From the IMG/VR virus record IMGVR_UViG_2660238524_000003: 40,665 nt of DNA; one strand, given 5' to 3'. Positions 1-28,165 of this stretch are shown one piece after another; position 1 is the stretch's first letter; each line of letters opens with the position of its first letter. Source of the stretch: a virus. Its lineage: Duplodnaviria > Heunggongvirae > Uroviricota > Caudoviricetes. The notes under the pieces were generated by a model. The model had not been told where the DNA came from and made no database searches. It saw nothing but the letters and a program-made list of their open reading frames with translations. A program made the position numbers and the translations under genes.

Positions 1-1293
<1,293 letters not shown>

Positions 1294-1313
1294 TACCCAA
1301 TTTTTCTGAATCT

Positions 1314-1336
1314 AAAAAGCGCCTGCGGGCGCTTTA
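1314..1336 (+). terminator. weak stem-loop just after serS
   Basis: agcgcc-tgcg-ggcgct hairpin at 1318-1333, short T tract. Confidence 0.35.
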
Positions 1337-1409
1337 AGTAGAGGTTTAATCATTTGAAAATAAATGGATTTTATTTTTAAGTGTCCATATAACGTCCATC
1401 TTTGAATGC

Positions 1410-1449
1410 AAAAAGCCCACAGCTTCTATGCTGTGGGCTTTGTTTTTTG
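1410..1449. terminator. bidirectional rho-independent terminator
   Basis: 9-bp stem agcccacag/ctgtgggct (1414-1439) flanked by A5 upstream and T-rich run downstream. Confidence 0.6.
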
Positions 1450-1467
1450 GTGTCCTCATGAGTGAGG

Positions 1468-1504
1468 GAACCAAAAAGAAAACCCGCAGTTTTTACGCTG
1501 CGGG
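1468..1504 (-). terminator. terminator for hok-like transcript
   Basis: Hairpin cccgcag/ctgcggg at 1483-1504 followed on the - strand by UUUUCUUUUU. Confidence 0.45.
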
Positions 1505-1598
1505 CTTGTTGTTCACGTCAACTGGAAATAGGGTGCCTTTTCGACCTTTACCCTGGCAACCGATTGACGGGGAAGTTGCCTTCCCCGTCGCGGTTTCC

Positions 1599-1739
1599 TT
1601 ACTGCTTACACTGTAAGAACGCCGCAAACTCCGCTCCCCAGAAACTCATCCGTATTTCACACAGCGAACCGTGCAGCATCCAGATGATGAGGATTGCCGT
1701 CACGCAGAATGTGATGGCCGTAAGCGATTTTTGCGACAT
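1599..1739 (-). CDS. Hok/Gef-family small membrane toxin (type I toxin-antitoxin)
   Basis: 46-aa ORF read manually (MSQKSLTAITFCVTAILIIWMLHGSLCEIRMSFWGAEFAAFLQCKQ), below the ORF-track cutoff. Hydrophobic N-terminus and SLCEIR...AAF motif resemble Hok/HokA; AAGGAG 8 nt upstream of ATG. Confidence 0.6.
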   Translation of the reverse strand: MSQKSLTAITFCVTAILIIWMLHGSLCEIRMSFWGAEFAAFLQCKQ

Positions 1740-1842
1740 AGCGCTTGCTCCTTTTTCGGGGAGGCGCTAACCTATCACTTGCTGAGGGTAGATGGTTAGG
1801 GCCTCGGGTTAACGTTAAAGTTGACTCGGGGCCTTTCCACAT
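1657..1842 (-). CDS. mok-like overlapping leader ORF of the hok-like locus
   Basis: 61-codon ORF starting upstream of and overlapping the hok-like ORF in another frame, as mok does in hok/sok loci. Confidence 0.3.
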   Translation of the reverse strand: MWKGPESTLTLTRGPNHLPSASDRLAPPRKRSKRYVAKIAYGHHILRDGNPHHLDAARFAV

Positions 1843-1930
1843 CTGGCCTTCGGGTATTCCCTCCGACCATCAGCCGAAAGGCACCCGCACGTAATCTATC
1901 GCTTTTTTGTTACTCCGGCAATTCTGCCTG

Positions 1931-2191
1931 TTAATTCTGAGATAAAGGCAAACTCATCTGATTGTTTCCCCTGTGTGAAGCTGGCAGATCATGCCACGGG
2001 ATACCTTCTGAAGAGTGAACGCCGGAGGCGTGTTTTGATGTGAATTTATGGAAAGCTTCCAGTGTTGAGAAGCATACGCCGCATTCCAGATTGTTACACT
2101 GGTAATACTTTTGCCGCACGGTGTTTGAATCATTTTCCGGACGACTGGTGCGGATACGGGCAGATGCGCCACAAAGCGGACAACGGAACAT
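1931..2191 (-). CDS. ogr: Ogr/Delta zinc-finger late-gene activator
   Basis: MFRCPLCG...CNNLEC four-Cys zinc finger typical of P2 Ogr; AAGGGAGG RBS upstream of ATG 2191. Confidence 0.85.
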   Translation of the reverse strand: MFRCPLCGASARIRTSRPENDSNTVRQKYYQCNNLECGVCFSTLEAFHKFTSKHASGVHSSEGIPWHDLPASHRGNNQMSLPLSQN

Positions 2192-2231
2192 AGCGACCTC
2201 CCTTAACGTGGTGCTGCCTATTCTAAGTTGC

Positions 2232-3341
2232 TCACTCTGTTTCCGCTATCCATTCCGGGATTTTTGCCTCAAGCTCAAGCTGCGTGGTAAAACCGCTGTT
2301 ATCAATGGTGTGCTCGGCTTTTGCAATGATCCAGTCCTGATTATCAATCTCGCTTTTAAATCCTGTTACCGTGCCATGCATTTCGGGGTAGAGTTCTGCA
2401 CGTCCACGCGCCAGCGTGATGGAGAATGATGCGGCTCCGCGTTGTAGTTGCTGCCACTTTGCCGCCGCTGCGCGTCTTGCTGCCTGCTCGTTCTGATAAG
2501 TCTTGCGTAACACAAACACATTGCCTTCCGCGCCTTCCATATAATCACCTTCGCGGCTGCTGCTTTTCTCCTTTTTGGGTTTTGGCGGTTTACGGCGTTT
2601 CACGCTGACTTTTTTCTTTTTCCCGTAATTAAGATCAAGCCAGTAAGCGCGTACCCCCGTATACGCTTCGCGGTCAGCAATGCGGAACTGATGGCGATCG
2701 CCGCTGCTGCGTGTGATGGCAAACGATGGCAACGGCTGGCCCTGTGCGTTCACGCCACCGCCGGGCATGATGAATAACAGATTACCGCTTTTTACCGTGG
2801 TGATTGCGCCCAGCATTTCCGCCATGCGCGTAAGGAAGGACATGTCGCTTTCTTCGGTCTGGTCGGCGTGGTCGATTTCGATATCCATCAGCATTTCGCT
2901 GATTTGCGGTTTCAGACCATACCGATGAGCGATGGCGGATACCACACGCTCAACGGTCACATCATGCCAGGACACCTCACGTTTAACGTTAAATTCATCC
3001 CGAAAATCTGCGCTTCTGGCTGAAACAGTCAGCCTGTCCGGCGGTCCTTCGTGAGCGATTTCATCAACAATGTAAGTGCCTTTTTCTGTCAGCGGTTCTC
3101 CTTTCCAGCCAATGAGAACCGTCAGGCGCGCGCCCCGTGGCGGTAGCTGCAACTGACCATCCGCATCATCCAGCGTGATGGTGAGCTGGTCCGCCTCAAA
3201 TCCCCGGTTGTCGGTCAGTGACAGGCTCATCAGGCGCTCTGCCACGCCTGACAGCGTTTTACCCTCCGCGAGAATATCAAAATCCGGCATTTTCACGGGG
3301 TCTGTGCCCTGACTGAGCAATTGCATGGTGGTGTCGGTCAT
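2232..3341 (-). CDS. P2 gpD-like tail protein (late control gene D)
   Basis: Similarity to P2 gpD; start placed at ATG 3341 (MTDTTMQLL) with GGAGGGAGG RBS. The longer track ORF to 3473 is an upstream extension. Confidence 0.88.
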   Translation of the reverse strand: MTDTTMQLLSQGTDPVKMPDFDILAEGKTLSGVAERLMSLSLTDNRGFEADQLTITLDDADGQLQLPPRGARLTVLIGWKGEPLTEKGTYIVDEIAHEGPPDRLTVSARSADFRDEFNVKREVSWHDVTVERVVSAIAHRYGLKPQISEMLMDIEIDHADQTEESDMSFLTRMAEMLGAITTVKSGNLLFIMPGGGVNAQGQPLPSFAITRSSGDRHQFRIADREAYTGVRAYWLDLNYGKKKKVSVKRRKPPKPKKEKSSSREGDYMEGAEGNVFVLRKTYQNEQAARRAAAAKWQQLQRGAASFSITLARGRAELYPEMHGTVTGFKSEIDNQDWIIAKAEHTIDNSGFTTQLELEAKIPEWIAETE

Positions 3342-3498
3342 CTGCTCCCTCCCTGTGCGGCATGGTCGCATGTGCGTGCGGAGGGGGTTACTGCTTTTTG
3401 TTGTCGCCGTGGCGGGAGAACGGCGCAGGGGTGAGATTACGCGCGTGGTGGGTGATGATTGTTGCCGAATCATTTAACGGATACAAGGGGCTGAAGCT

Positions 3499-4683
3499 AT
3501 GAGTGAAACTCGTTTTCATGGTGCCCGTGTCACGGAAAGTACCGACCTGGTAACAGCGATTAATGATGTTGATTCCAGCGTTATCGGTATCGTGGCAACG
3601 GCGGATGATGCGGATGCGGAGCTGTTCCCGCTGAACAAGCCCACACTGCTGACCCGCGTCAATGACGTGCTGGGAAAATGCGGGACTACGGGGACGCTTT
3701 ATCGTGCGCTTAAGGCTATCGCAGACCAGGTGAGCACAAAAGTGATCGTCGTTCGCGTGGCTGAACACAAAGAAGAAGGCGGTAGGACGCAGGATCAACT
3801 GGTTATCGGTGGTTCTGAATCTGACGGCAGCTATACGGGGATGTATGCGCTGCTTGTTGCAGAGCAGGATGAAAGCATCGGATACCGTCCGCGTATTCTG
3901 GCCGCGCCGGAGCTGGACACGGAGGCGGTGACAAAATCCCTGTGCGTGATTGCGGGTAAACTGCGCGCGTTTGTGTATGCCACATGTCATGGTTGTAACA
4001 CGATGGCTGAGGCGATTACCTACCGCCAGAAATTCAACGAACGTGAGGTGATGCTCTTATGGCCTGACTTCATCGCCTACAACCCGAAAAGTGGCAAAAA
4101 CGAAACGTTCCCCGCGCCTGCTTATGCGTGCGGCCTTCGTGCGTACATTGACCATGAGCAGGGCTGGCACAAATCGCTGTCCAACGTTCCGGTTAAAAAT
4201 GTGCTGGGGATGTCGAGGCATGTGTTCTGGTCGTTACAGGCCGAAGACAGTGATGCCAACAGCCTCAACAACAAAGAAATCACGACCATTATTCGTCGTA
4301 ACGGGTTCCGCTTCTGGGGCAACCGCACACCGGAAACGAACGCCTACATCTTTGAGGTGTATACCCGAACCGCACAGGTGCTGGCTGATTCAATTGCGGA
4401 AGCGCAGTTTGAAACCATCGACAGTCCACTGACGCCTGCGAACGTGAAGGATGTTATCAGTGCCATCAGGGCAAAATTGGATTCGCTGGTTACTGCCGGG
4501 AAACTGATTGGCGCGGAGTGCTGGTATGACGTGGTGGATAACGGCACCACGGATTTACGTCAGGGGCGTGTGCGTATTCGCTACAAATATACGCCCGTTC
4601 CCCCGCTGGAAGACATGGAGCTTTACCAGACGTTTACTGATGAATTCTTTGGTCCCGCATTTGCGGTGCTGGGAGGTGCCTGA
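3499..4683 (+). CDS. tail sheath protein FI
   Basis: 394 aa with P2 FI-like sequence and size; AAGGGG RBS. Confidence 0.93.
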   Translation: MSETRFHGARVTESTDLVTAINDVDSSVIGIVATADDADAELFPLNKPTLLTRVNDVLGKCGTTGTLYRALKAIADQVSTKVIVVRVAEHKEEGGRTQDQLVIGGSESDGSYTGMYALLVAEQDESIGYRPRILAAPELDTEAVTKSLCVIAGKLRAFVYATCHGCNTMAEAITYRQKFNEREVMLLWPDFIAYNPKSGKNETFPAPAYACGLRAYIDHEQGWHKSLSNVPVKNVLGMSRHVFWSLQAEDSDANSLNNKEITTIIRRNGFRFWGNRTPETNAYIFEVYTRTAQVLADSIAEAQFETIDSPLTPANVKDVISAIRAKLDSLVTAGKLIGAECWYDVVDNGTTDLRQGRVRIRYKYTPVPPLEDMELYQTFTDEFFGPAFAVLGGA

Positions 4684-5195
4684 TGGCTGTACCAAAACAT
4701 CTTCGCTTTTTTACGTTGTTTGTGGATGGTGAAAACGAAGTGGGTAAAGTGACATCCGTCACGCCGCCCAAACTGACGCGCAAAACCGACAGCTATCGTG
4801 GTGGTGGCATGATGGGAGCAGTAAGTATTGATCTCGGTCTGGACGACTCCGCGCTTGATGCGAGCTTTGTCATGGGGGGAGCTGTTCGTGCACTGTTCCT
4901 TAAGTATGGCGGCACGATTGACGGCACGCTGCTGCGTTTTGCGGGTGAATATTACACCGATGCAGAAAGCGATCTGTATGAAATCGAGATGCGCGGGCGT
5001 GTGACGGAAATTGATATGGGGGAGGCCAAACAGGGCGAAGCCACATCACACACTTACGCTGTCAAAAACACCTACTACAAGCTGAGCGTTAACGATCGCC
5101 CGCTGTGGGAAATCGACCTGTTGAACCACATCTACCGGAAGGACGGCAAGGACATTGTGCCTGACCGCATTCGTTCCGCGCTTGGGCTTGGCTGA
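4683..5195 (+). CDS. tail tube protein FII
   Basis: 170 aa; start overlaps FI stop (TGATG), as in P2. Confidence 0.9.
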   Translation: MAVPKHLRFFTLFVDGENEVGKVTSVTPPKLTRKTDSYRGGGMMGAVSIDLGLDDSALDASFVMGGAVRALFLKYGGTIDGTLLRFAGEYYTDAESDLYEIEMRGRVTEIDMGEAKQGEATSHTYAVKNTYYKLSVNDRPLWEIDLLNHIYRKDGKDIVPDRIRSALGLG

Positions 5196-5250
5196 TAAGT
5201 AATATGCAGGCGGCGCAGTGCGTCGCCTCTGACTGAAAAGGAGACAACTG

Positions 5251-5625
5251 ATGAAAGATATCGATACTGAAACCCGGAATAACACCGTAGCGGATGATGT
5301 GACGTCAGGTGAGGATATGGCTGTCGAACGTGGTGTAAAACTTTCCCGGCCAATTGAGCGTGGTGCCGAAAAAATCACATATGTGGAGATCACCGGGGCT
5401 ATTGAGCAGGCGGGATCCCTGCGTGGTCTGTCGCTGTCTGATGTGCTGAATCTGAAAGCGGATACCATGTTCACGCTGTTGCCTCGCGTGACCTCGCCAC
5501 GACTGGATGAAGTGATGATTAAAAAAATGTCGTCACGCGATTTTATTCAGTTGTGCGCTGTGGCTGTAAATTTTATGAGCGAGCCAGACTCTGGCGCGAA
5601 GAGCGTGCAGGAGACGGCAGCGTAA
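5251..5625 (+). CDS. tail assembly chaperone E
   Basis: Position between tube and tape measure; AAAGGAG RBS. Confidence 0.85.
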   Translation: MKDIDTETRNNTVADDVTSGEDMAVERGVKLSRPIERGAEKITYVEITGAIEQAGSLRGLSLSDVLNLKADTMFTLLPRVTSPRLDEVMIKKMSSRDFIQLCAVAVNFMSEPDSGAKSVQETAA

Positions 5626-5789
5626 TCACCCTGGTGTGCTTTGAGCACATCGAAGATCTGGTGGCGGATATTGCCGCCATTTTCAACTGGTCGCCCGCCG
5701 AAATCTTCATGATGACGCCCGGCGAAGTGGTTAGCTGGCGTGAGCGGGCGGCACTTCGCAGCGGGAATGCAGATAATGAAGACTCTTGA
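5251..5789 (+). CDS. E+E' fusion by programmed -1 frameshift
   Basis: The -1 frame opens at 5523, right after its own stop (5520-5522), inside an A7 run (5521-5527), and stays open to 5789 ending ...WRERAALRSGNADNEDS. Matches the conserved E/E' arrangement of P2-like phages. Confidence 0.55.
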
Positions 5790-8583
5790 CATCCGGGTCG
5801 CTTTCAGCGCCGTTGACAGGCTGACCCGGCCTGCCGAAAACGCCCGCCGCCTGATGGGGCAGTTTGGTGACTCCATTCAGCGAACGCAGGGGGCGATCAA
5901 AAATCTCGAGCGTCAGGCGCGTTCATTTGAGCGCGCCCGCGACGCTGTCAGTAAAGCGGATGCGGGTATCGTGAAAGCACGACGCCAGCTTAACGCCCTT
6001 AATCAGTTACAACGCACGGGTACAGTGCTCAGCGAAAAACAACAAAAGCTGATGCAGCAGTTAAGCACCCGGCTTGAACGCCTGAATGAATCGCGCACAC
6101 GGGAAATTCAGAAAATGCGGGAGCTTGGCGGAGAACTGAAACGCCACGGCATTTCCCTGACAGGCAGCGATAACACCATCCAGCAGGCCATCAGACGCAC
6201 CGAACAATACAACAACCAGCTTGAACGCGAACGGCAGGCGCTTGCGCGTGTAACGCAGGCTCGTGAGCGGTATTCGCGCGCGCAGGAAACCGCGGGAAAA
6301 CTGAAAACAGGTGGTGCGCTGGCAATTGGTGCGGCAGCGGCGGGCGGCTATGCTGCCGGGCGTTTTTTGCAGCCCGCGATCGGGTTCGGCAAAGAGATGT
6401 CCCGCGTTCAGGCGCTGACGCGAATCGACAAAAACAGCCCGCAGTTTAAGGCGCTGCGTGAGCAGGCGTTAAAACTTGGCTCTGAAACACAGTTTACTGC
6501 GAGTGATGCCGCCAGTGGGCAGAGCTTTCTGGCAATGGCTGGTTTTACTCCGCAGGCCATTCAGGCCGCATTGCCCGGTGTTCTTAATATGGCGCTGGCA
6601 GGTGGCGTCGAACTCGGCGAGACGGCTGATATAGGCTCCAATATCCTCACACAGTTCAACCTGACAGCCGATCAAATGGACCGGGTTGGCGATACGCTGA
6701 CAGCGGCATTCACCCGGACCAATACTGATTTACGCGCGCTGGGCGAAACCATGAAGTATACCGGTCCGGTTGCCGCAAAACTTGGTATCAGTCTTGAAGA
6801 AGCGGCAGCCATGGCCGGGATGCTTGCCAATAATGGTCTTCGTGGAAGCGATGCTGGTACGGCCATGCGCGCAAGTCTGTCCCGCCTTGCATCACCGCCA
6901 AAAGCTGCGGCTGATGCGCTGAAAGAGCTGGGGGTGTCAGTTGCTGACGCCAGAGGCAAAATGCGCCCGATGGAGGATGTGCTGCTTGATCTCTATAAGG
7001 CGACACAAAAATACGGACAGGTGGACCAGGTTTCCTTCTTCAAGGACATCGCCGGAGAAGAGGCGTTCGTTGGTTTGCAGACGCTTGTTGCGGCGGCTGG
7101 TTCAGGAGAGCTGCAAAAACTGACCAGAGAATTGCAGGGGGCAAGGGGAGAGGCCGATCGCGTTGCAAAAGTAATGGCCGATAATCTTGATGGGGACCTG
7201 AAAAATCTCGACAGCGCATGGGAAGGTCTTCGTATTCGCATCAGTGATCTGGTTGACGGTCCGCTGCGTTCTGTCACGCAGTGGCTCACGCGGGTGCTTG
7301 AAAAAATCACCTCGCTGGCGCAGGCCCATCCGGTACTGACGCGCCAGCTACTGATAGCAGGCGGTGCGTTGCTGGCAATGACTGCAACGGTTGGCTCGTT
7401 GTCGCTGGCTATTGGTGTGCTTGCTGGCCCGCTGGCAAAACTGCGTCTTGGCTTTTCCCTCCTGACCGGTTCAATGAATGCTGTCAGACTCCTGCCAGCA
7501 CTATGGGGAATGGTGACGGGTTCCGTTTCGTTACTGGGGGGCGCTATCGGGGCGTTGTTCAGTCCGGTCGGCCTTATCGTGGCTGCGCTTGCCGGAGCTG
7601 CCGTTCTCATCTGGAAATACTGGGATCCCATCAGGGCATTTTTTGCCGGGGTGTTCAGCGGGATTATGGAAAGGCTGACCCCGTTGCGCGAAACCTTTGA
7701 ACGGTTTGGTCCTGTTTTTGACGCAATCGGGAGTGGGATCAGCCAGGTGTTTAACTGGTTTAAATCGCTGCTGTCTCCGATGGAGTCCAGCAAGGAAACT
7801 CTGGATAAATGTACCAGTGCTGGCGAGATATTCGGTAACGTTCTTGGCGGTGCGTTACAACTTGTTCTGACACCTGCAAAAATGTTGCTGGATACGCTGG
7901 CGTGGATACTTGAAAAGCTTGGTGTGCTTCCGGATGAAGCGGAAAGGGCGCGCAAGAAAATCGAAGACGCACAGCGTGCGGCCATTCTTCAGGACAAGGT
8001 TGCCTTGCTTCAGGGGGACCTGGCGAAAATCAATCCGCCGAAGCCTGTGGAAAATGGCAATGGCACCGGAGGTGATAACCCCAAAGACAATAAACCGCTC
8101 ACAGACAGCAATACCGGTACGCTGCGCAGACTCAGCAAAATTGCTGATAACACAGGTAAGCTGGTTGAGGAGACGAAAAAACGCATTGGCCCCGGCGATA
8201 TTGTCTTTAAAAACCTGCCCCGAGCACTTGCTGTTCGTGGGGAGTGGCAGGAGCGGAAGATTGCGCAGGTCAGTAAGCCTGCCCCCGCAATTAATATCAC
8301 ACCCGTGGTCCCGGCTCCGCTGCCTCCGGCGCTGGTCCCTGTTGTTGCGGCCAGCTCCCGCCCGGTGGCGGAGGCTATACGATCTCCAGTGGCATCAGTT
8401 CCTGTAACTTCCCGTAACCGGGAGCCTGTTGCCTCCGGATTTGGTGGTGAAATTCATGTTCATCTGCATAACGTTGTTACGCAGAATCCCCGCGAACTGG
8501 CGAAACTGGTCGGTGAAATGGTCAGGGCAGAAATGGAACGGCGCGCCCGTGCCGGGCGTGGCAGTTTTTACGATAAAGATTGA
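5767..8583 (+). CDS. tail tape measure protein T
   Basis: About 940 aa, coiled-coil N-terminus and Ala/Gly-rich hydrophobic core. Start ambiguous (GTG 5740, ATG 5767 or 5776). Confidence 0.9.
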   Translation: MQIMKTLDIRVAFSAVDRLTRPAENARRLMGQFGDSIQRTQGAIKNLERQARSFERARDAVSKADAGIVKARRQLNALNQLQRTGTVLSEKQQKLMQQLSTRLERLNESRTREIQKMRELGGELKRHGISLTGSDNTIQQAIRRTEQYNNQLERERQALARVTQARERYSRAQETAGKLKTGGALAIGAAAAGGYAAGRFLQPAIGFGKEMSRVQALTRIDKNSPQFKALREQALKLGSETQFTASDAASGQSFLAMAGFTPQAIQAALPGVLNMALAGGVELGETADIGSNILTQFNLTADQMDRVGDTLTAAFTRTNTDLRALGETMKYTGPVAAKLGISLEEAAAMAGMLANNGLRGSDAGTAMRASLSRLASPPKAAADALKELGVSVADARGKMRPMEDVLLDLYKATQKYGQVDQVSFFKDIAGEEAFVGLQTLVAAAGSGELQKLTRELQGARGEADRVAKVMADNLDGDLKNLDSAWEGLRIRISDLVDGPLRSVTQWLTRVLEKITSLAQAHPVLTRQLLIAGGALLAMTATVGSLSLAIGVLAGPLAKLRLGFSLLTGSMNAVRLLPALWGMVTGSVSLLGGAIGALFSPVGLIVAALAGAAVLIWKYWDPIRAFFAGVFSGIMERLTPLRETFERFGPVFDAIGSGISQVFNWFKSLLSPMESSKETLDKCTSAGEIFGNVLGGALQLVLTPAKMLLDTLAWILEKLGVLPDEAERARKKIEDAQRAAILQDKVALLQGDLAKINPPKPVENGNGTGGDNPKDNKPLTDSNTGTLRRLSKIADNTGKLVEETKKRIGPGDIVFKNLPRALAVRGEWQERKIAQVSKPAPAINITPVVPAPLPPALVPVVAASSRPVAEAIRSPVASVPVTSRNREPVASGFGGEIHVHLHNVVTQNPRELAKLVGEMVRAEMERRARAGRGSFYDKD

Positions 8584-8595
8584 GGAGTCATGGCC

Positions 8596-9084
8596 ATGAT
8601 GATGATCTACGGCATGTTTGTTTTTGAGCTGCGCACGCTGCCGCATCAGCAGTTACAGCAAAACAAAAGCTGGCGGCATGTGAAAAATGAACGCGTTAAC
8701 CGTTCAGCAAGCTGGCAGTATATCGGTGCAGGTGATGATCGCATCGTTCTTTCTGGTGTGCTTTATCCTGAAATTACAGGTGGCGAAGTGTCGCTGTCGC
8801 TGCTGACCACGCAGGCGTATACAGGACGACCCTGGCCTTTGATTGATGGCGTCGGGCAGATTTACGGCATGTATGTCCTGACTGAAACGAATACGACCCG
8901 CTCCGAGTTTGATCGCTACGGTAAGGCGAAAAAGATAGAATTTTCACTGACTCTTGAACGCTGTGATGAGGATTTGCGGGAGCGCCTGCAATCCTCATCG
9001 TTCAGTGATATGCTGTCCGGCTTCAAAGATAAGGTGACATCATCTCTTAACAGCGCGGCCAGTTCAGTTAAAGGGCTGTTCTGA
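8596..9084 (+). CDS. tail protein U
   Basis: MMMIYGMFVFEL... resembles P2 gpU; GAGGAG at 8583-8588 favours ATG 8596 over 8590. Confidence 0.88.
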   Translation: MMMIYGMFVFELRTLPHQQLQQNKSWRHVKNERVNRSASWQYIGAGDDRIVLSGVLYPEITGGEVSLSLLTTQAYTGRPWPLIDGVGQIYGMYVLTETNTTRSEFDRYGKAKKIEFSLTLERCDEDLRERLQSSSFSDMLSGFKDKVTSSLNSAASSVKGLF

Positions 9085-9092
9085 TTTAACAC

Positions 9093-9131
9093 AAAAACCG
9101 CTAATGGTCAGATTAGCGGTTTTCATTTTCC
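9093..9131 (+). terminator. terminator after U, convergent with invertase 3' end
   Basis: Hairpin aaaccgctaat/attagcggttt (9095-9122) followed by T-rich run. Confidence 0.5.
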
Positions 9132-9712
9132 TGAGTCTGCCCGGTTGTTTCTTCAGTCTGTATATCGCCTACAGGGTGATAACGATAAATCGTCGATGTG
9201 CCAATGCCGTAAATTATTGCCAGTTGTTTTCTGTCGTGCCCGTTTTTGATTAGCCTTGCTATTTGCTCATGCTGTTCTTTTGTCAGCTTCGGTCGACGTC
9301 CGCCTGTGCGCCCCCTTGCGCGCGCTGCCGCCAGCCCGGCCAGTGTACGTTCAACAATTAATTCACGTTCCATTTCAGCCAGGGCACCCATCACGTGGAA
9401 GAAAAAACGCCCCATTGGAGAAGATGTGTCTATGCTGTCGGTCAGACTGCGAAAATTAATCCCTCGCTCCCGTAGTTCCCCGACGAGAGAAATCAGATGT
9501 TTCATGCTTCGCCCGAGGCGATCCAGTTTCCAGACAACCAGCGTGTCACCTTTTTGAAGGCGCTTTAAAGCGCGTTTTAATCCCGGTCGGTCTGTCTTTG
9601 TCCCGCTTAATTTATCTTCAAATATTTGTTCACATCCTGCACAAACAAGAGCGTTTCGTTGCAGGTCTGTATTCTGGTCATTTGTTGATACCCTTACATA
9701 GCCAATCAGCAC
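9113..9712 (-). CDS. serine DNA invertase (Gin/Pin/Cin/Hin family)
   Basis: N-terminus LIGYVRVSTNDQNTDLQRNAL and the rest closely resemble Gin/Pin. Start placed at GTG 9712 (GGGAGA RBS), reproducing the family N-terminus. Confidence 0.92.
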   Translation of the reverse strand: MLIGYVRVSTNDQNTDLQRNALVCAGCEQIFEDKLSGTKTDRPGLKRALKRLQKGDTLVVWKLDRLGRSMKHLISLVGELRERGINFRSLTDSIDTSSPMGRFFFHVMGALAEMERELIVERTLAGLAAARARGRTGGRRPKLTKEQHEQIARLIKNGHDRKQLAIIYGIGTSTIYRYHPVGDIQTEETTGQTQENENR

Positions 9713-9766
9713 ACTGAATCTCCCGTCCAAAAGCGCAAATCATGCCATGCAGGCCAGAAACGGCCA

Positions 9767-9792
9767 TTATTTAAAACCTCGGTTTACGAGAA
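9767..9792. other. gix/hix-like crossover site (left)
   Basis: TTATTTAAAACCTCGGTTTACGAGAA, a 26-bp imperfect palindrome with the AAACC-NN-GGTTT core of Gin/Hin/Cin sites as recalled. Confidence 0.6.
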
Positions 9793-10488
9793 CTCGGCAC
9801 AAGCGGGGAGAAAATACCGTTACTCAGTACAGCGAATACCTGGACCAATCGACAAACATTCAGCGGTGGCCTTTCTGGGGAACTGTCCGGCAATGCCGCT
9901 ACTGCAACAAAGCTGAAAACAGCACGAAAAATTGCTGGAGTTGGTTTTGATGGTTCTAGCGATATTTCAATTAGTGCCAAAAATGTCAATGCATTTGCAC
10001 TCCGACAAACAGGTAATACTGTTAATGGTGATACATCCGTTGGATGGAATTGGGATAGTGGTGCATATAACGCCATGATTGGTGGTGCATCTGCATTAAT
10101 TCTTCACTTTAATATAAATGCTGGTAGCTGTCCTGCCGTACAATTCCGTGTGAATTATAAAAATGGTGGCATTTCCTACAGGTCGGCTCGTGATGGTTAT
10201 GGGTTTGAATTAGGTTGGTCAGATTTCTATACCACGACACGAAAACCTTCAGCGGGAGATGTTGGTGCATATACGCGGACAGAATGTAACTCAAGGTTTA
10301 TTACAGGTATTCGCCTTGGCGGTCTGTCATCTGTTCAGACATGGAATGGTCCCGGCTGGTCTGACAGGTCAGGTTATGTCGTTACGGGTTCAGTTAACGG
10401 AAACCGTGATGAATTAATTGATACAACACAGGCAAGGCCAATTCAGTATTGCATTAATGGGACGTGGTATAACGCGGGGAGTATTTAA
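9775..10488 (+). CDS. alternative tail-fibre C-terminal variable cassette, silent in this orientation
   Basis: Frame open from 9775 with no start codon; encodes ...[29 protein letters not shown]..., parallel to but diverged from the expressed H C-terminus. Confidence 0.75.
   Translation, partial: NLGLRELGTSGEKIPLLSTANTWTNRQTFSGGLSGELSGNAATATKLKTARKIAGVGFDGSSDISISAKNVNAFALRQTGNTVNGDTSVGWNWDSGAYNAMIGGASALILHFNINAGSCPAVQFRVNYKNGGISYRSARDGYGFELGWSDFYTTTRKPSAGDVGAYTRTECNSRFITGIRLGGLSSVQTWNGPGWSDRSGYVVTGSVNGNRDELIDTTQARPIQYCINGTWYNAGSI
9776..9878. repeat. left inverted repeat of invertible segment
   Basis: 9776-9845 is an exact reverse complement of 12531-12462; identity continues with one mismatch to 9878/12429. 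Confidence 0.9.
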
Positions 10489-10490
10489 CG

Positions 10491-11024
10491 ATGATGCACT
10501 TAAAAAACATTACTGCTGGCAACCCTAAAACAAAAGAGCAATACCAGCTAACAAAGCAATTTAACATCAAATGGCTTTATTCAGCTGATGGAAAAAACTG
10601 GTATGAGGAACAAAAGAATTTCCAGCCAGACACTTTGAAAATGGTCTATGACCATAACGGCGTTATTATTTGTATTGAAAAGGATGTTTCAGCAATTAAT
10701 CCGGAAGGCGCAAGCGTCGTTGAATTACCTGATATTACAGCAAATCGCCGGGCTGATATTTCGGGGAAATGGATGTTCAAAGATGGCGTAGTGGTAAAGC
10801 GAACTTATACCGAGGAAGAGCAGAGGCAACAAGCGGAAAATGAAAAGCAGAGCCTGTTGCAACTTGTCAGGGATAAAACTCAGCTATGGGACTCACAGCT
10901 ACGGCTGGGCATCATTTCCGACGAGAATAAACAAAAATTAACCGAGTGGATGCTCTATGCGCAGAAAGTCGAATCCACAGACACCTCCAGCCTGCCAGTA
11001 ACATTTCCCGAACAACCTGAATGA
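10491..11024 (+). CDS. tail fibre assembly protein, alternative copy
   Basis: 177 aa, MMHLKNI... paralogous to the 11053-11580 copy. Confidence 0.85.
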   Translation: MMHLKNITAGNPKTKEQYQLTKQFNIKWLYSADGKNWYEEQKNFQPDTLKMVYDHNGVIICIEKDVSAINPEGASVVELPDITANRRADISGKWMFKDGVVVKRTYTEEEQRQQAENEKQSLLQLVRDKTQLWDSQLRLGIISDENKQKLTEWMLYAQKVESTDTSSLPVTFPEQPE

Positions 11025-11027
11025 GAC

Positions 11028-11058
11028 AAGGCCCGATAACGGGCCTTAATTTTTATTC
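11028..11058. terminator. stem-loop between convergent assembly genes
   Basis: ggcccg-ataa-cgggcc hairpin (11030-11045) followed by T-rich run. Confidence 0.45.
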
Positions 11059-11580
11059 AGGCTTTTGTGGCCATTCAGGATTTGCCGTATCCACACGGTT
11101 GACCAGAACACTGTAGCGTTCCCATGCTTCCAGTCGTGTGCGTTCCTCGTCTGTTGCCATATTCAGCCTGACAGCGCGTTCCAGCGGCTGGATGACTGAT
11201 TCAGCTTCGGAAAGCAATGCGGCCTTTTGTGATTCGGCCTGTTGTTGCTGTTCGTCAGCCGTATAAATCCGTTTAACCACAGCTCCGTCCTTAAACATCC
11301 ACTTACCGGAATCATCGGTCCGACGATTGGCCGTTATATCGGGAACCTCGACGACGCTAAAACCTTCGGGATTAAGCGTGGAGGCATCTCTGGTGATGGC
11401 GACAATAATATTATTTTCATCGTAAACAATCTTTATGGTGTCTGGCTGAAAGTTTTTCACTTCCTCATACCAGTTTTTTCCGTCCTCAGAGTAAAGCCAG
11501 ATAACTCCGTGTTTCTTTGTTAACTCATACTGTTCCAGTGTTTTAGCATTACCCGCTTTTATGTTCTTTAAGTGCATCAT
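11053..11580 (-). CDS. tail fibre assembly protein (expressed orientation)
   Basis: 175 aa, immediately downstream of H on the same strand. Confidence 0.88.
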
Positions 11581-11581
11581 A

Positions 11582-13804
11582 TTAAACGCTCGCTACATTA
11601 TACCAGGTGCCATTTATATACTTTTGAACGGGTCTGTAATAAACACCCGCTATATTATCGGCAGAGTTAGACCCTGTATCCTGAACATTAATACCAGACA
11701 ATACATGACCTGAAGGGCACTGGAAATTCCATGTTCGCCAGTTGTTCACTCCATAATATTGCTGTGAACCAAGTCGAACATCTTTCACATAACGGGAATC
11801 AAAGTTACCGTAATCCGAGGGATTAACACGCCCCGTAATATTTATGGTCTTATTACTTTGAATGCTTCCGGGAACAAAGCGCATAACATGGACGTAATTA
11901 GCATAAACATCCAGATTACCATCGCCATTTTGTTTAAAGCCCGTGTCATTATCACCCAATACAATCGAATTACCGCCAAGAGCACTGGATGTTCCGATAC
12001 CCAGTGCACCATTCAGTTGACCACCAGATAACGGCAGTGCACCAACATCTCCTGCTGAAGGTTTTCTGGTGGTGGTGTAAAATTCGGACCAGTCGGCTTC
12101 AAAACCATAACCATCACGGGCTGAACGATAAAAAATACCGCCATTTTTATAATTAATCCGAAACTGAGCTGCAGGACAACTTCCGTCTCCCATATAAAAA
12201 TGAATAATTAACGTTGATGCACCACCAATATTTGCGTTATAGGCTCCGCTACTCCAGTTCCATCCAACTGCTTTATCATTCGCAACGGTGCTTCCTGTTT
12301 TCCCTAAGGCAAACGCACCAACATGACTTGCTTTTAATGTGATATCGGAGGAACCATCAAAAGCCACATTGCTTATTTTCCTGGCAGTTTTTAATTTTGC
12401 AGCTGTAGAAGCATTGCCGGATAGTTCACCAGAAAGGCCACCGCTGAATGTTTGTCGATTAGTCCAGGTATTCGCTGTACTGAGTAACGGTATTTTCTCC
12501 CCGCTTGTGCCGAGTTCTCGTAAACCGAGGTATTCGATAACGGCAGCAACGGTCGATTTCGCAAGAATATCCCGCCCGACTTTTGTCAGGGTTGCCAGGC
12601 TGGCGACATCATTCCCCGTAAAATACGGAAACTTGCCTGCCGCAGTAGTAAGTCCGGCCAGCGCCGTCAGGGTGGCATCTTTCGGTTGCTTACCCGCAAG
12701 CGCGTTAGTCATGGTGGTCGCAAAATTCGGGTCGTTGCCCAGCGCCGCAGCCAGCTCGTTCAGCGTGTTCAGTGCATCAGGTGACGAATCTACAAGGGCG
12801 GCAATCGCAGCCATAACGAAAGCCGTGCTTGCGATTTGGGTATTATTCGTTCCCTGTCGCGCAGTTGGTGTTGTTGGCGTTCCGGTCAGTGCAGGACTAT
12901 TTAAGGGCGCTTTCTTGTTCGTTTCATCCATTACCGCCTTAACAGCTTTCGATGTCGCGGCCAGTGTTTCAGACGTGCTGTTGGTGGCACTACTGAGCTG
13001 GACTATCCCTTTTTGTGCCGTCGTGGCGTCCTGAGCGGTATATTTTGCGTTAGCAAGGTCATACGCGGCCTTTACTGCTTTCGGCGTTGCAGCCTGCGTT
13101 TCAGACGTGCTGTTGGTGGCGCTACTGAGCTGGACAAGGCCTTTTCGCGTCGTGCTGGCATCCTGCGCAGTATATTTACCGTTAGCAAGGTCATACGCGG
13201 CCTTTACTGCTTTCGGCGTTGCAGCCTGCGTTTCAGACACGCTGTTAGTGGCGCTACTGAGTTGAACAAAGCCTTTTGCGGTCAGCGAGGCGTCCGGGTG
13301 ACGTCGTGACTGTTCATGCTCTTTCAGTTTGTCATCCACGTAATCCACTGTGGCCATCACCATGGTGTTATCCACGGTAAGCACCACGGTGGCAGTGCTG
13401 GATACGGTCAGAATGGTGCGAAATGTTTGTGCACGACCGGACCCTTCGGCAACGGCTGGCTTGTAACTTTCGGCAGTATTGCCCACCGCGATTAAATCGC
13501 CGTGCTCATCAAATACACCAATTTCCCGGATCCAGAATCCGCCCGTTTCAGGAGGAATAACCAGCTCCGCAATAATGCGGTTCTGATGTGTTGCGTCCAG
13601 GATGACGCGATTAACAGTATGTCGCCACACCTCATGCACCAGACGGGTCTGCTTACTGTCTGGTGTGGGCAACGTGCCGCCACCGTCGCCCACGGCCATA
13701 TGAGTCAGGCGGACAGGCTTACCATCTGGCGCGGCTGCCTGAGCTAATTTTTTGGCACCCGTATCGGTGATAACGGTTTTAAATTTACGTGTTGTGGTAC
13801 TCAT
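11582..13804 (-). CDS. tail fibre protein H
   Basis: 740 aa; N-terminus resembles P2 H. The C-terminal ~310 codons lie inside the invertible segment. Confidence 0.92.
12429..12531. repeat. right inverted repeat of invertible segment
   Basis: Reverse complement of 9776-9878; gix-like site at 12515-12540. Confidence 0.9.
12934..13330. repeat. three tandem 132-bp repeats inside tail fibre gene
   Basis: gtttcagac(g/a)... recurs at 12966, 13098 and 13230; encodes three 44-aa repeats (...[33 protein letters not shown]...). Confidence 0.75.
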
Positions 13805-13806
13805 GC

Positions 13807-14337
13807 TTAATCGTCCGGATAAATGGTAATGACTTCGCCGTCGTAAGTTGCTGCCGCCGCGAAAATATCTCCCTGAATCTCCTGAATGATATTCAGCCCT
13901 GTCATGTGGCGGCTGACCGGGCGGGCATCAGCAATCAACCGCTCCATTTCCAGATACATTTCCTCCGTCACGCCACTGTCCAGCGTGCCGACTTCAACGG
14001 TAAATGTTCCCGGTTCTCCGCCGAACTCCCACCACTCAGACACGCGAATGAGGTATCCCAGCGGCTCAATGGCCCGGCGCAGTGCGCTGATGGTCCCTTT
14101 GTGTCGGTGTATCAGCCATGCATCACGAATCACCTGTCGCTTTGTCTCTTCCGGCCAGTTGCGATCCCAGCGGTCAACGGAAAATGCCCAGGCGAGATAA
14201 GGCAGCAGATGCACCGGGCAGGTGTCCGGTGACCACAGCGTGTTGAGGTCTACCGGGATGTCTGTAATGCGCGCTCCGACAGCTTCGGCGCAACGCATGA
14301 AATTGCTGGCTGATGGCGGTAACAGTGAATTACTCAT
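13807..14337 (-). CDS. baseplate protein I
   Basis: Position and size as P2 gpI; start at ATG 14337 with AAGGTGG RBS. Confidence 0.85.
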   Translation of the reverse strand: MSNSLLPPSASNFMRCAEAVGARITDIPVDLNTLWSPDTCPVHLLPYLAWAFSVDRWDRNWPEETKRQVIRDAWLIHRHKGTISALRRAIEPLGYLIRVSEWWEFGGEPGTFTVEVGTLDSGVTEEMYLEMERLIADARPVSRHMTGLNIIQEIQGDIFAAAATYDGEVITIYPDD

Positions 14338-15226
14338 TACGCCCACCTTCGCTGATGGTGAATGACTCACAGCGCGCCGCCTGTATGTCGCTGATGGCCA
14401 TATTCTGTGTGGGTTCGATTATCTCCACGCGTTGCACGCCGTGCACATGAAGTGCGGCAGCAATGGCTGACAACGCCACGTCCTGACCAATAAGCCCCTG
14501 CTCAGCCAGCCACTTCCTGAACGACGATTCAGCCGCAGCCAGAATAGGTTCGGATTCCGGGCCGGGGTAAAAGTACAGTTTTGCATTCAGCCGCCATGTC
14601 ACGATGCTGGCGCTCTGTACGGTCAGTCGGTCGGCCACCGGGCGGGTATCCTCTGCATTCAGAACGGCGCGAACGGTATTAAGCAACGCCTCCGTTGCTG
14701 TGCCGTCGCCTTCAGTGGACAGAATGGAAACCGTCACACAGGCCGGAGACGGGCTGATGGCCCGCGCATCACGCACCAGACCGCTGGCGCTGCGTGCAAA
14801 ATACTCGTATGCACCTGACGGGCCAGCAACACTCAGGCCGTCATACGCCCGCTGCGCCCGCAGTCTCAGCGAGGTGTCGCTCTCCATCACCGCGTCGGTG
14901 GTATCCGTTGCCGGAGTGATAACCAGGCGCTTTGTGTTCATATTGCCCGCGAGGTTGTCCAGGTTTGTCCCTGAACCGTGGCTTAACATGCAGGCGCGTG
15001 CGCCCTCGTTAACCCGCTGGCGTAACAGCATTTCACGAAACGACATGGTTTGAGCGATAACGTTCAGGGGTTCTGATTCCAGCTCCAGCGCGGCGGAGAC
15101 GGCTTCACGCTGTTCGGCAGGATAGGACGCAATCATCATGGCCTTTGTGTCAGCCAGAATTGCCTCAAAATCAGGCTCCGCGATGATGGCGGGTTCCGGT
15201 AACTGGGAAAGATCAACAGCAGGCAT
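14330..15226 (-). CDS. baseplate assembly protein J
   Basis: 298 aa, MPAVDLSQLPEP... resembles P2 gpJ. Confidence 0.9.
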   Translation of the reverse strand: MPAVDLSQLPEPAIIAEPDFEAILADTKAMMIASYPAEQREAVSAALELESEPLNVIAQTMSFREMLLRQRVNEGARACMLSHGSGTNLDNLAGNMNTKRLVITPATDTTDAVMESDTSLRLRAQRAYDGLSVAGPSGAYEYFARSASGLVRDARAISPSPACVTVSILSTEGDGTATEALLNTVRAVLNAEDTRPVADRLTVQSASIVTWRLNAKLYFYPGPESEPILAAAESSFRKWLAEQGLIGQDVALSAIAAALHVHGVQRVEIIEPTQNMAISDIQAARCESFTISEGGRNE

Positions 15227-19429: not shown

Positions 19430-19685
19430 CTTTTGCAATATCGTTGCGTAGCTGTTCACGTCTTACCTCTCCGTCCTGATTGCGTTGCTGATTTTCCGCG
19501 CGGAGCTGAGCCAGCACCTGCTGCATATCCTGTACCCCGGCGCTGATGATATTCAGTGTGTCGACGGTACTTTTCAGGGTGCTGGCCTGCGCTTCGTTTC
19601 TGGCGTTCTCCCGGCCCAGCGACCACGACAGACGCATGGATGTAATCAGAAGGAAAGCGACGCCAAGCGTGGGCCAGAGCTTCAT
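19290..19685 (-). CDS. i-spanin (LysB/Rz-like)
   Basis: N-terminal TM helix (MKLWPTLGVAFLLITS) followed by a charged, Gln-rich coiled coil; ATGA overlap with endolysin stop. Confidence 0.75.
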   Translation of the reverse strand: MKLWPTLGVAFLLITSMRLSWSLGRENARNEAQASTLKSTVDTLNIISAGVQDMQQVLAQLRAENQQRNQDGEVRREQLRNDIAKDECAHALPDARFTDRLRRHAERARASAVSPAYTADADHAGNASPLP

Positions 19686-21192: not shown

Positions 21193-21993
21193 TTAACCGC
21201 GCTTTGCCTTCTGCGTCGCGGTGGTTTTTCGTGTTGCAGGCTTCCGCGTTGTCTTTTTACTTTTGCTGCTTTCGTCCTGCGCCTGCTGTGCGCTGGCGTC
21301 TTCTGGTTCGGCTGCGGAATCGGCTTTTTTCAGGGCGCGGGAAAGGGTTGCAATCTCGCGTTTCACACCTGCGTTCGGGTTCAGGTGCATCGCTTCGCGC
21401 AGCAGCTTCAGTGATGAGGCCATGTTGTCTGCATCGGTCAGGCCACGACGGGCAAAGGCACACGCCTTGCATAATTTGGCGCGCACTTCGTCCGGCATGT
21501 CCTGGTTGGCGATAATTTCCCAAAGTGTGTCCAGTGGTTCGATAAAGGCGGATAAATCCGCGTCGGCATCCGTCCCAGCCTGCGTCAGTACCGGGTTGCA
21601 GATTTCTTCGGTCAGTACCGTGGCAGCAGTACGGCCAAAGTTATCCGGCATGATGAGGTTGTGACGGACCACATATGCACCAATACGCAGCGCCAGCGGA
21701 AGATCGCCGCAGTCAATCGCCCACACCATCAGCGTGGCAATTACTTCGTCCTGTTGCCCGCCGTCAGCCTCCAGCGTTCCCTCAATCCAGCCGGAAAAGT
21801 CCGGCAACAACTCTTTTTTGATGGCGGCTTTCGCGCTTCTGGCCTGTATGGCCTTTAGCCTGGCCTGTGCCAGACGCAGACGATACAGCACCTCTTCATG
21901 CGCGGTACACGCGGCGTGGTCCACACCTTCATTCGCCCGGCCTGCGCGCTGTGCCATCACGTTCTGCCAGTGTTGTTGTGCAGGAGTAATCAT
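21193..21993 (-). CDS. terminase endonuclease (small) subunit M
   Basis: 266 aa, position and size as P2 gpM; GGAGAG RBS. Confidence 0.88.
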   Translation of the reverse strand: MITPAQQHWQNVMAQRAGRANEGVDHAACTAHEEVLYRLRLAQARLKAIQARSAKAAIKKELLPDFSGWIEGTLEADGGQQDEVIATLMVWAIDCGDLPLALRIGAYVVRHNLIMPDNFGRTAATVLTEEICNPVLTQAGTDADADLSAFIEPLDTLWEIIANQDMPDEVRAKLCKACAFARRGLTDADNMASSLKLLREAMHLNPNAGVKREIATLSRALKKADSAAEPEDASAQQAQDESSKSKKTTRKPATRKTTATQKAKRG

Positions 21994-23951: not shown

Positions 23952-24105
23952 AGTTTTTGCCCCTCTGACTGGTTCTTCAGTCATGATGGCAAAGCGTAAC
24001 AGGCTGATACAAAGGGCTTTTGTTGTAAGAAAACAGTCAGAACAGAGGGTTAAGGAGAACAGTTTCGCGCGCGGGTAATCTTCCTGTAATTACTCAGGGG
24101 GAGCA
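23952..24105. promoter_or_regulatory. divergent late promoter region between O and P
   Basis: Inferred from synteny with P2 PO/PP; only partial TGT-N12-ACA-like dyads seen. Confidence 0.35.
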
Positions 24106-27988: not shown

Positions 27989-28020
27989 TGACCGTGGCTT
28001 GCCTTTGATGTAGTTTATAC
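27989..28020 (+). promoter_or_regulatory. candidate promoter of cargo locus
   Basis: TTGACC followed ~17 nt later by TAGTTT/TATAC. Confidence 0.3.
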
Positions 28021-28068
28021 GTCACAAAAACCACAAAACGTGGTTATGATTTCTATGAGGGGGTTGAT

Positions 28069-28104: not shown

Positions 28105-28123
28105 GCTACGTTGACCTCTAATG

Positions 28124-28151: not shown

Positions 28152-28165
28152 ATGGATGAAATAGG

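Follow-up and report, generated by a model that had tools for sequence, protein, structure and literature searches.

The inversion of the tail genes FI to U in this DNA is an old, fixed feature of a lineage of P2-like phages. The window, as we call the whole stretch of 40,665 nucleotides that was analyzed, is a P88-like (Xuanwuvirus) Escherichia coli prophage inserted beside serS. Its FI-U genes form a block of 5,586 bp on the plus strand, with D and ogr on one side and the invertase gene, H and G on the other, all on the minus strand. The same layout is standard across recognized P2-like subgroups, and it is therefore ordinary rather than a new rearrangement. We consider it very likely that the region as a whole is explained by one ancient, fixed inversion of FI-U, together with an Ogr site common to the predicted promoters of FI (P_F) and D (P_D) and a predicted bidirectional terminator downstream of U.

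Gene map of the tail region

Every gene of the cluster was assigned with Pfam and PHROG profiles (Table 1). The set is that of a P2-like (Peduoviridae) contractile tail, with sheath, tube, the chaperone pair E/E' and its -1 frameshift, tape measure, gpU, gpD and an activator of the Ogr/Delta family. The organization is not that of the F operon of P2 (genus Peduovirus). The P2 genome (NC_001895) confirms the order V-W-J-I-H-G / FI-FII-E-E'-T-U-D-ogr on one strand, whereas in the window FI-U lie on the plus strand and D, ogr, H, G and V-I on the minus strand. An earlier note on this DNA had described FI-FII-E/E'-T-U as a plus-strand block amid minus-strand genes, and the open reading frame map and the profile matches bear this out to the base. 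It had also given a divergent D/FI leader of 157 bp, and this length is exact: the start of D at 3341 follows a GGGAGG ribosome-binding site, and residue 1 of D aligns with residue 1 of the P88-like D proteins, which together fix the limits of the spacer. For T we use the ATG at 5776, the start annotated in P88 and in RefSeq. Translation of both frames confirmed E', the -1 frame being open past the slippery sequence A AAT TTT until 5789, and in an identical prophage RefSeq places a "GpE family phage tail protein" at the E/E' position.

At the other end of the block a small correction is needed. The junction had been given as 9085-9131, but the spacer between U and the invertase gene is only 28 bp long, 9085-9112. 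The hairpin at this junction is predicted to be a bidirectional terminator common to U and the convergent invertase gene, and as such it would stop both the FI-U transcript and the transcript that approaches it from the invertase side.

Table 1. Features of the tail region and of the related late spacer, in window coordinates
Feature	Position	Strand	Basis or remark
ogr-like late activator (86 aa zinc-finger protein)	1931-2191	-	Pfam Ogr_Delta E 5e-14; phrog_603 transcriptional regulator; 40 bp 3' of D
D (tail/baseplate hub, 369 aa)	2232-3341	-	Pfam Phage_GPD; phrog_52 E 2e-166
Divergent D/FI spacer, 157 bp	3342-3498	.	sequence
Predicted -10 hexamer, D side (GACCAT, TG before)	3362-3367	-	conserved position; predicted start ~3355
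P2-type activator dyad TGT-N12-AGA, center 3410.5	3402-3419	.	within TTGTTGT-N12-AGAAC, 3398-3421
Predicted -10 hexamer, FI side (GATGAT, P_F equivalent)	3454-3459	+	conserved position; predicted start ~3466
FI tail sheath	3499-4683	+	Pfam Phage_sheath_1, Gp18_domIII_N, Phage_sheath_1C; phrog_23
FII tail tube	4683-5195	+	Pfam Phage_tube E 2e-45
E	5251-5625	+	phrog_103
E+E' (-1 frameshift product)	5251-5789	+	slippery A AAT TTT at 5568-5574
T tape measure	5776-8583	+	Pfam PhageMin_Tail E 1.6e-56; longest ORF from GTG 5740
U tail protein	8590-9084	+	Pfam Phage_P2_GpU E 5.5e-39
Hairpin with a perfect stem of 12 bp, flanked by an A-run and a T-run	9094-9123	.	overlaps invertase 3' end
Gin/Pin-type serine invertase	9113-9730	-	Pfam Resolvase + HTH_7; phrog_125 DNA invertase
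Left gix-like crossover site of tail-fiber invertible segment	9767-9792	.	window gix consensus
Tail-fiber assembly gene	11053-11580	-	
H	11582-13804	-	
Right gix-like crossover site, within H	12515-12540	.	window gix consensus
Comparison dyad TGT-N12-AGA, divergent O/P (capsid/terminase) spacer	24024-24041	.	

Distribution and origin of the inverted layout

Xuanwuvirus relatives are 92-95% identical in nucleotide sequence over 82-93% of window positions 1500-14000. Between 14000 and 38900 the window is about 96% identical to P88 over 73% of the region and 100% identical to an "Entero_P88" record (ST131). Judged by these regional identities the window falls within Xuanwuvirus, and it has the gene order of that genus, V-W-J-I-H-G / (invertase) / inverted U-T-E-FII-FI / D-ogr, as seen in the P88 and phiSM annotations and by tblastn. 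From V to ogr, P88, phiSM and other Xuanwuvirus members match the window in gene order and strands; their D/FI spacer, too, is 157 bp long, and the invertase gene likewise adjoins U. The window differs from the P88-like genomes in an added 625-aa esterase-like gene between the lysis genes and R, in an additional IS1 copy in the cargo region and in the C-terminal cassette of its tail fiber. A PADLOC scan of the cargo open reading frames returned no matches.

Comparison of synteny with P2 and related prophages, which the earlier note had proposed, places FI-U in inverted orientation relative to P2 and in identical orientation in the P88-like relatives. The layout is the same in P88, the type of the genus Xuanwuvirus, in Citrobacter phage phiSM, in SEN5 (Senquatrovirus) and in Kp4871-3 (Reginaelenavirus), and besides these three genera it is found in prophages of about 20 genera of Enterobacterales. 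P2, Cartapus and ST437-OXA245phi4.1 are collinear. P88 and phiSM, which share both order and orientation with the window, are functional, plaque-forming phages, plaque formation by phiSM having been reported (PMC6456863). In the orientation tables obtained with tblastn, all 122 fetched loci with a D protein at least 60% identical to that of the window were inverted, and all 8 fetched loci at or below 53% identity, P2 among them, were collinear. These loci were retrieved with D-derived patterns and form a large sample rather than a formal phylogeny, so that a single inversion event is the parsimonious reading of their orientations.

The idea of an old fixed inversion or a lineage-specific layout, which the earlier note had offered as a guess, was right. 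That the same layout is the norm in recognized P2-like subgroups, which the note had named as its refutation, means that the layout is not unusual. On the strength of deposited and classified genomes the layout is already known. No explicit account of the FI-U inversion was found in the P88 paper (PMC5285337), in the paper on SEN4 and SEN5 (PMC5261728) or in a literature search on tail-sheath inversion in the Peduoviridae, and for this reason we base the statement on those genomes.

A misassembly or a recent, strain-specific rearrangement would have nothing in its favor beyond the difference from P2, and we assign it virtually no probability. Among 5,426 complete E. coli genomes, 1,355, about a quarter, have an unbroken D/FI junction at 95% identity or more, and 621 have the U/invertase junction; these counts rule out an assembly artifact. 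The same junctions also occur in independently sequenced phages.

On this reading the inversion happened once, long ago, and became fixed in the ancestor shared by a large clade of Peduoviridae; one breakpoint would have lain directly upstream of the activator site of P_F and the other where U meets D. Within the block, identity to P2 is 46% for FI, 43% for FII and 46% for U; for the flanking genes it is 48% for D, 45% for V, 44% for W and 54% for J. Block and flanks are about equally diverged from P2, which fits an inversion in place. The block could instead have been gained as a foreign FI-U cassette that happened to enter in the opposite orientation. P2-like genomes are mosaic, and the neighboring tail-fiber/invertase cassette is clearly horizontal, being about 90% identical to Mu and present only in some close relatives. 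Nevertheless, the divergence of FI, FII and U from P2 and from Cartapus equals that of their neighbors D, W, J and I, and the block has retained a P_F of the P2 type whose dyad is the motif that the phage also has at its O/P spacer. We therefore regard such a replacement as quite improbable.

The invertase gene adjoins the U end of the block, and one might suppose that FI-U is a second invertible segment, reversibly flipped by this serine recombinase, with the window caught in one of its two states. The evidence leaves this a negligible probability. When the whole window was scanned with its own gix consensus, the only matches were the sites at 9767-9792 and 12515-12540, which lie in a 170-nt inverted repeat (9763-9932 / 12375-12544); the published Mu gix sequence had no match in the window within 3 mismatches. 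Alignment of the two FI-U junctions gave no inverted repeat above chance (best local score 7, shuffle mean 7.25), nor did a search over positions 1-15000 yield any repeat above chance linking them. The absence of a gix-like site at either junction, claimed from inspection of the sequence, thus holds, and FI-U lacks the crossover sites at both ends that mark segments of the Gin/Hin/Cin/Pin type. Relatives do not exhibit both orientations: all 122 loci of the clade face the same way, and the majority of inverted loci carry no invertase. The D/FI spacer, furthermore, is built like a fixed divergent promoter region. The gix scans, the junction alignment and the inverted-repeat search effectively rule out invertase-driven flipping of FI-U; the adjacent invertase serves the tail-fiber segment.

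These results provide a simple rule for the scanning of P2-like prophages. When gpD is at least about 60% identical to that of P88, an inverted FI-U block is to be expected, and a scan should not report it as a sign of rearrangement, misassembly or invertase action.

A predicted shared activator site between D and FI

The length of the D/FI spacer and blocks of its sequence are conserved in 46 non-redundant relatives. Near its middle lies a dyad of the type found in the Ogr-dependent late promoters of P2, TGT-N12-ACA (PMC3931495). The right half-site is AGA in the window rather than ACA, a mismatch in one half-site, and many relatives have a perfect ACA. In 99 of 101 non-redundant relatives a motif TGT-N12-A.A precedes the ATG of FI by 78.5-88.5 nt, the background expectation being 0.011. 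Of the longer form TTGTTGT-N12-ANAAC the window has exactly two copies, one per divergent late spacer (D/FI and O/P), and P88 has exactly this pair as well. A third, weaker dyad-like site at 19605-19628 on the minus strand was rejected as a promoter, there being no.A..AT hexamer at +44.

The candidate -10 elements were assigned from conservation and geometry. On the FI side an.A..AT hexamer is present at +44 from the dyad center in 92% of 99 non-redundant spacers; on the D side 79% of the 99 have it at +44 and another 8% at +45. With hexamers at this distance to the left and right, the dyad would be at about -55.5 with respect to each start, and the two predicted starts are 111 bp apart. Against the D-side promoter it can be said that its hexamer in the window (GACCAT) is weak and that D would have a leader of no more than some 14 nt. 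In the O/P spacer of the window the P side has TAATCT, at +44, and the O side has CATCAT, at +45. A scan for the sigma-70 consensus detected no promoter-like site in the D/FI spacer. The spacer thus has the sequence features of Ogr/Delta-dependent late promoters, in which a -10-like element is combined with a dyad centered at about -55 and a -35 element is lacking. In addition, a GC-rich block, CAcGCGCGCG, is conserved on the D side of the spacer, where the window itself has GCACGCAC. The heptamer GCGCGCG is found close to the predicted D-side promoter of relatives, and in the window close to the promoter on the P side. As a special shared element it was discarded, since its 16 occurrences in the window are no more than the expected number (15.9).

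The inversion means that D is no longer the final gene of the F operon. The earlier note had concluded that D is uncoupled from this operon, which is correct for its physical position; in regulation the conserved Ogr-type dyad, symmetric between D and FI, speaks against uncoupling. A single dyad midway between the two genes argues that both units are still co-regulated, and D is probably controlled together with FI through one predicted shared Ogr site. Through the inversion P_F would have come to lie beside the start of D, together with its Ogr-binding site, which has dyad symmetry. This one site would now serve two divergent promoters, P_F of the FI-U unit and P_D of the D-ogr unit, at a distance of about 55.5 bp in either direction. 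D would then be a separate transcription unit that is nevertheless under late control of the Ogr type. We lean toward the view that the inversion could be tolerated and become fixed because an activator site of the P2 type is a dyad, and that the Ogr site of P_F was co-opted in this manner for a new, divergent D-ogr promoter.

Alternatively, D-ogr might be transcribed from a promoter independent of the dyad, constitutive or differently regulated, in which case the uncoupling of D from FI-U would be genuine. In P2 a separate promoter for ogr lies between D and ogr, the D-side hexamer of the window is poor, and the conserved GC-rich block on the D side has no assigned role. We nonetheless hold an independent promoter to be unlikely. 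The sigma-70 scan found nothing promoter-like on the minus strand of the spacer, the D-side hexamer keeps the exact mirror position of +44 over a range of 60-100% D identity while the intervening sequence varies, and the 111-bp geometry copies that of P2 P_P/P_O.

The biological interest of the region is modest and resides in this prediction of one Ogr-type dyad for two divergent tail operons, with the 111-bp geometry of P_P/P_O; both P88 and the ST131 prophage, which is very common, allow a direct test of it. If co-regulation through the shared dyad is correct, the D/FI spacer is a second bidirectional late promoter of the P_P/P_O kind, with starts 111 bp apart. It would be a natural case of promoter bidirectionalization that rescued an essential gene severed from its operon, conserved in at least three phage genera, and would show how such a gene stays under late control after the separation.

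Comparison with known systems

A close known counterpart is the P2 F operon, which has the same gene set, the same internal order of FI-U, the E/E' -1 frameshift and ogr after D. P_F of P2 has the build predicted for the FI promoter of the window, and the dyad has been kept, some 83-88 bp ahead of the ATG of FI. The proteins of the two phages, by contrast, are only 33-61% identical. In P2, D is the last gene of the F operon and its start overlaps the stop of U, whereas in the window D opens a divergent unit of its own. The spacer itself is like that of P2 P_P/P_O, where a single TGT-N12-NNA dyad lies midway between divergent late units and the annotated starts, 3016 and 3127, are 111 bp apart around one activator site; the starts in the window are predicted. 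The O/P spacer of the window has the motif too. The P2 pair serves capsid and terminase genes, and the D/FI pair would serve the tail genes of D-ogr and FI-U.

Stenotrophomonas phage Smp131, likened here from its published description, has tail operons that are reshuffled relative to P2 and that keep late promoters of the TGT-N12-ACA type, and one dyad is used for both P_P' and P_O' (PMC3931495). Its rearrangement is a different one, in a different lineage.

The segment at 9767-12540 is exactly of the type known from the Mu G segment with Gin, P1 Cin, e14 Pin and Salmonella Hin, with a serine invertase, crossover sites of 26 bp in inverted orientation, and alternative C-termini of the tail fiber along with the assembly genes that belong to them. 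Its nucleotide identity to Mu is about 90%, and the invertase has about 90% nucleotide identity to the gin region of Mu/D108. The FI-U block differs from all such segments in having neither crossover sites nor inverted repeats, nor an alternative orientation in any relative.

Gene order and setting of the tail block

The window begins with the host gene serS and ends at the stop codon of a phage integrase (40665). In an E. coli chromosome where the two junction probes (window 2900-3900 and 8650-9550) both match at 100%, the corresponding prophage occupies the serS/dmsA interval. An ORF map together with Pfam and PHROG scans bore out the identity of every gene that the earlier note had named. 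In the P2 record V-W-J-I-H-G and FI-FII-E-E'-T-U-D-ogr all lie on one strand, and comparison with the window's ORF map shows that the note had correctly placed FI to U in the inverted orientation. The start codon of D is preceded by a GGGAGG ribosome-binding site and aligns with residue 1 of D in the P88-like relatives. With this start fixed at 3341, the divergent D/FI interval is exactly 157 bp, the length originally proposed. E' is reached by a -1 shift at A AAT TTT (5568-5574), the entered frame being open to 5789. At the other end of the block 28 bp separate U from the convergent invertase gene, and a hairpin (9094-9123) whose 12-bp stem is perfect is common to both.

Features of the window, with the genes from ogr to V assigned from the ORF map and the Pfam and PHROG scans
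Feature	Position	Strand	Remark
serS	1-1293		host gene
ogr	1931-2191	-	
D	2232-3341	-	
FI	3499-4683	+	
FII	4683-5195	+	
E	5251-5625	+	
T	5740/5776-8583	+	
U	8590-9084	+	
serine invertase	9113-9730	-	
tail-fibre assembly gene	11053-11580	-	
H	11582-13804	-	
I, J, W, V		-	
D/FI dyad	3402-3419		TGT-N12-AGA
predicted D-side hexamer GACCAT	3367-3362		preceded by TG; predicted start near 3355 (-)
predicted FI-side hexamer GATGAT	3454-3459		predicted start near 3466 (+)
second TTGTTGT-N12-ANAAC copy	24020-24043		divergent O/P (capsid/terminase) spacer
third, weaker dyad-like site TCGTGGTCGCTGGGCCGGGAGAAC	19605-19628	-	inside lysis-gene region
625-aa gene	17274-19151	-	between lysis cassette and tail gene R
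Hok/Gef-family toxin gene	~1599-1739	-	between serS and ogr; by annotation of relatives
IS1 copy	~28700-29600		transposase ORF 28898-29401 (-)
C4 antisense RNA, isrK Hfq-binding sRNA	35314-35401, 35437-35511	-	prophage early/immunity region

Several other elements of the window were recorded. The Hok/Gef-family gene, which is annotated in P88 and in an identical E. coli prophage, lies near several strong hairpins around 1412-1590. The 625-aa gene occupies a position where P88 has only a short gap; its domains, DUF1737, SASA (sialate O-acetylesterase) and DUF6645, form a combination that may resemble the NanS-p esterases of Stx prophages. It gave no match in PADLOC and looks like a cargo ("moron") gene. 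IS1 lies between the portal gene and parM, in cargo DNA of low GC content (0.36 at 28001-29000), and the annotated layout of strain 4/1-1 departs from the window there, matching it otherwise. The C4 and isrK RNAs both exceed their Rfam gathering scores, at 83 and 65 bits. In RefSeq record NZ_CP023844 (4754-5607 and 23715-24515) D is given only 801 nt and a partial pseudogene, and gpM, the small terminase subunit, is flagged as a pseudogene with an internal stop. The 5' 442 nt of D (window 2900-3341) match this strain at 100% and the D ORF of the window is intact; at the gpM position the window has an open 266-aa ORF (21193-21993).

Distribution of the inverted layout

When 1500-14000 was used as a megablast query, P88, Xuanwuvirus P884B11 and Citrobacter phage phiSM matched with 92-95% identity over 82-93% of its length. 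P88 is the type of the genus Xuanwuvirus. In their annotated records the order and strands are those of the window: U, T, E, FII and FI run opposite to H, G, the invertase, D and ogr, and the D/FI spacer measures 157 bp. Outside this region, identity is about 96% to P88 and 100% to a record from an O25b:H4-ST131 strain. The window belongs to the P88-like phages. Since P88 and phiSM are inducible and form plaques (PMC5285337; PMC6456863), the inverted layout is functional.

The layout extends well beyond these records. A scan with the D protein, taking one genome per bacterial species, yielded 47 loci (Salmonella, Edwardsiella, Serratia, Erwinia, Pantoea, Enterobacter, Klebsiella, Kosakonia, Brenneria, Symbiopectobacterium and others), and in all the informative ones V to H are co-directional with D-ogr and FI-U is opposite. 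A scan of viral contigs with the D alignment added 80 loci. FI, FII, T and U oppose D in 122 of the 122 loci whose D is at least 60% identical to that of the window, and all 8 loci at 53% or less, P2 among them, are collinear, so that D identity splits the orientations perfectly over all loci. SEN5 (Senquatrovirus) and Kp4871-3 (Reginaelenavirus) are inverted; Cartapus (Elveevirus) and ST437-OXA245phi4.1 (Gegevirus) are collinear. Of 5,426 complete E. coli genomes, 1,355 have the 1-kb piece spanning the D/FI junction in one contiguous stretch, and 621 have the U/invertase junction so.

The earlier note had taken as its refutation the finding that a recognised P2-like subgroup normally has this arrangement, and synteny shows just that: the layout is standard for Xuanwuvirus, Senquatrovirus and Reginaelenavirus, which are ICTV genera of Peduoviridae, and for many unclassified enterobacterial prophages. 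The inversion was correctly observed and is an ordinary, lineage-defining gene order. Our literature search found no published account that spells it out; the layout itself is already known from genomes that have been deposited, annotated and classified.

In the phiSM record (OR565851, Citrobacter phage Shae_phiSM, 2294-4745) D goes under the name "ogr", and "late control gene D protein" is the name given to the sheath gene. This phage has been described with a long non-contractile siphovirus tail (PMC6456863), although its genome has the P2-type cluster for sheath and tube in full.

Origin of the inversion

A search of the window found crossover sites (TTCTCGTAAACCGAGGT.TT..ATAA) only at 9767-9792 and 12515-12540, enclosing a Mu-like tail-fibre segment with about 90% nucleotide identity to the G region of Mu and D108. 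Comparison of the two FI-U junctions revealed no common inverted repeat above chance, and the absence of a gix-like site at either junction, as first noticed, is confirmed. The invertase is missing from most relatives with the inverted block, several of them at 95% D identity or more. The possibility that FI-U is a switch is ruled out by the gix positions, the junctions and the fixed orientation in relatives without the enzyme; the block lacks the invertase control of a Gin-type segment. The window also lacks the F-operon organisation of P2. The invertase/tail-fibre cassette (9356-11644), about 90% identical in nucleotides to gin/G of Mu and D108, occurs in some of the window's close relatives and is missing from others, even at D identities of at least 95%, and because of this patchiness appears to be a mobile add-on at the G/U junction.

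Identity to P2 is similar inside the block (FI 46%, FII 43%, U 46%) and outside it (D 48%, V 45%, W 44%, J 54%), which speaks for an inversion in place rather than the import of a foreign cassette. That D identity separates the two orientations so cleanly supports the suggestion of an old fixed inversion or lineage-specific layout, and on grounds of parsimony would most simply reflect a single old event at the base of a clade.

A predicted bidirectional late promoter

Upstream of D nothing is co-directional: the 5.6 kb of tail genes there are antisense to it and lie behind a strong hairpin. Because FI-U is inverted and these phages nevertheless make tails, D needs its own promoter. When 46 non-redundant D/FI spacers were aligned, conserved blocks stood out from variable sequence, the strongest being TTGTTGT-N12-A.AAC, the P2 late-promoter dyad; TGT-N12-ACA occurs in the four Ogr-dependent late promoters of P2 (PMC3931495). 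In 99 of 101 non-redundant clade spacers the centre of a TGT-N12-A.A falls 78.5-88.5 nt before the ATG of FI (background expectation, 0.011). Exact TTGTTGT-N12-ANAAC is found just twice in the 40.7 kb, in the D/FI and O/P spacers, and P88 has the same two sites. Alignment of the spacers at the centre of the dyad placed a -10-like hexamer (.A..AT) equally far out to either side, and did so in all identity bands between 60% and 100%. On the FI side it begins at +44 in 92% of spacers; on the D side 79% have it at the mirror position, +44, and 8% more have it at +45.

On the D side of the dyad, relatives also carry a GC-rich block (CAcGCGCGCGcG) that is strongly conserved among them but degenerate in the window (CATGTGCGTGCGG, 3369-3381); a similar CGCGCGCG directly precedes the P-side -10 element of the O/P spacer (24066-24073), and in the window as a whole the heptamer shows no enrichment. 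The third dyad-like site, also in P88, closely resembles the D/FI site. It has no.A..AT hexamer at +44, and CTGAAAAGTACC nearby resembles the P2 P_F -10 region; the site may be the P_V equivalent for the R-S-V-W-J-I-H operon.

In P2, late P_F transcripts read into ogr. The inversion would have moved the P_F activator site beside D, where, being a dyad, it could work in both directions. The proposed uncoupling of D from the F operon would thus hold insofar as D forms a separate transcription unit, including ogr 40 bp downstream, but the shared dyad suggests that late Ogr-type control is retained. A second P_P/P_O-like bidirectional late promoter, predicted purely from conservation and geometry, is plausible and somewhat favoured; it is the only new element here, modest and testable. 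At the sequence level the window has the features of P2-type late promoters. P_F of P2 has the same build as the predicted pair, on a single side. The predicted starts each lie about 55.5 bp from the dyad centre, 111 bp apart, and in the P2 record a single activator site, TGT-N12-CCA centred at 3071.5, serves P_P and P_O, whose starts at 3016 and 3127 surround it and are likewise 111 bp apart.
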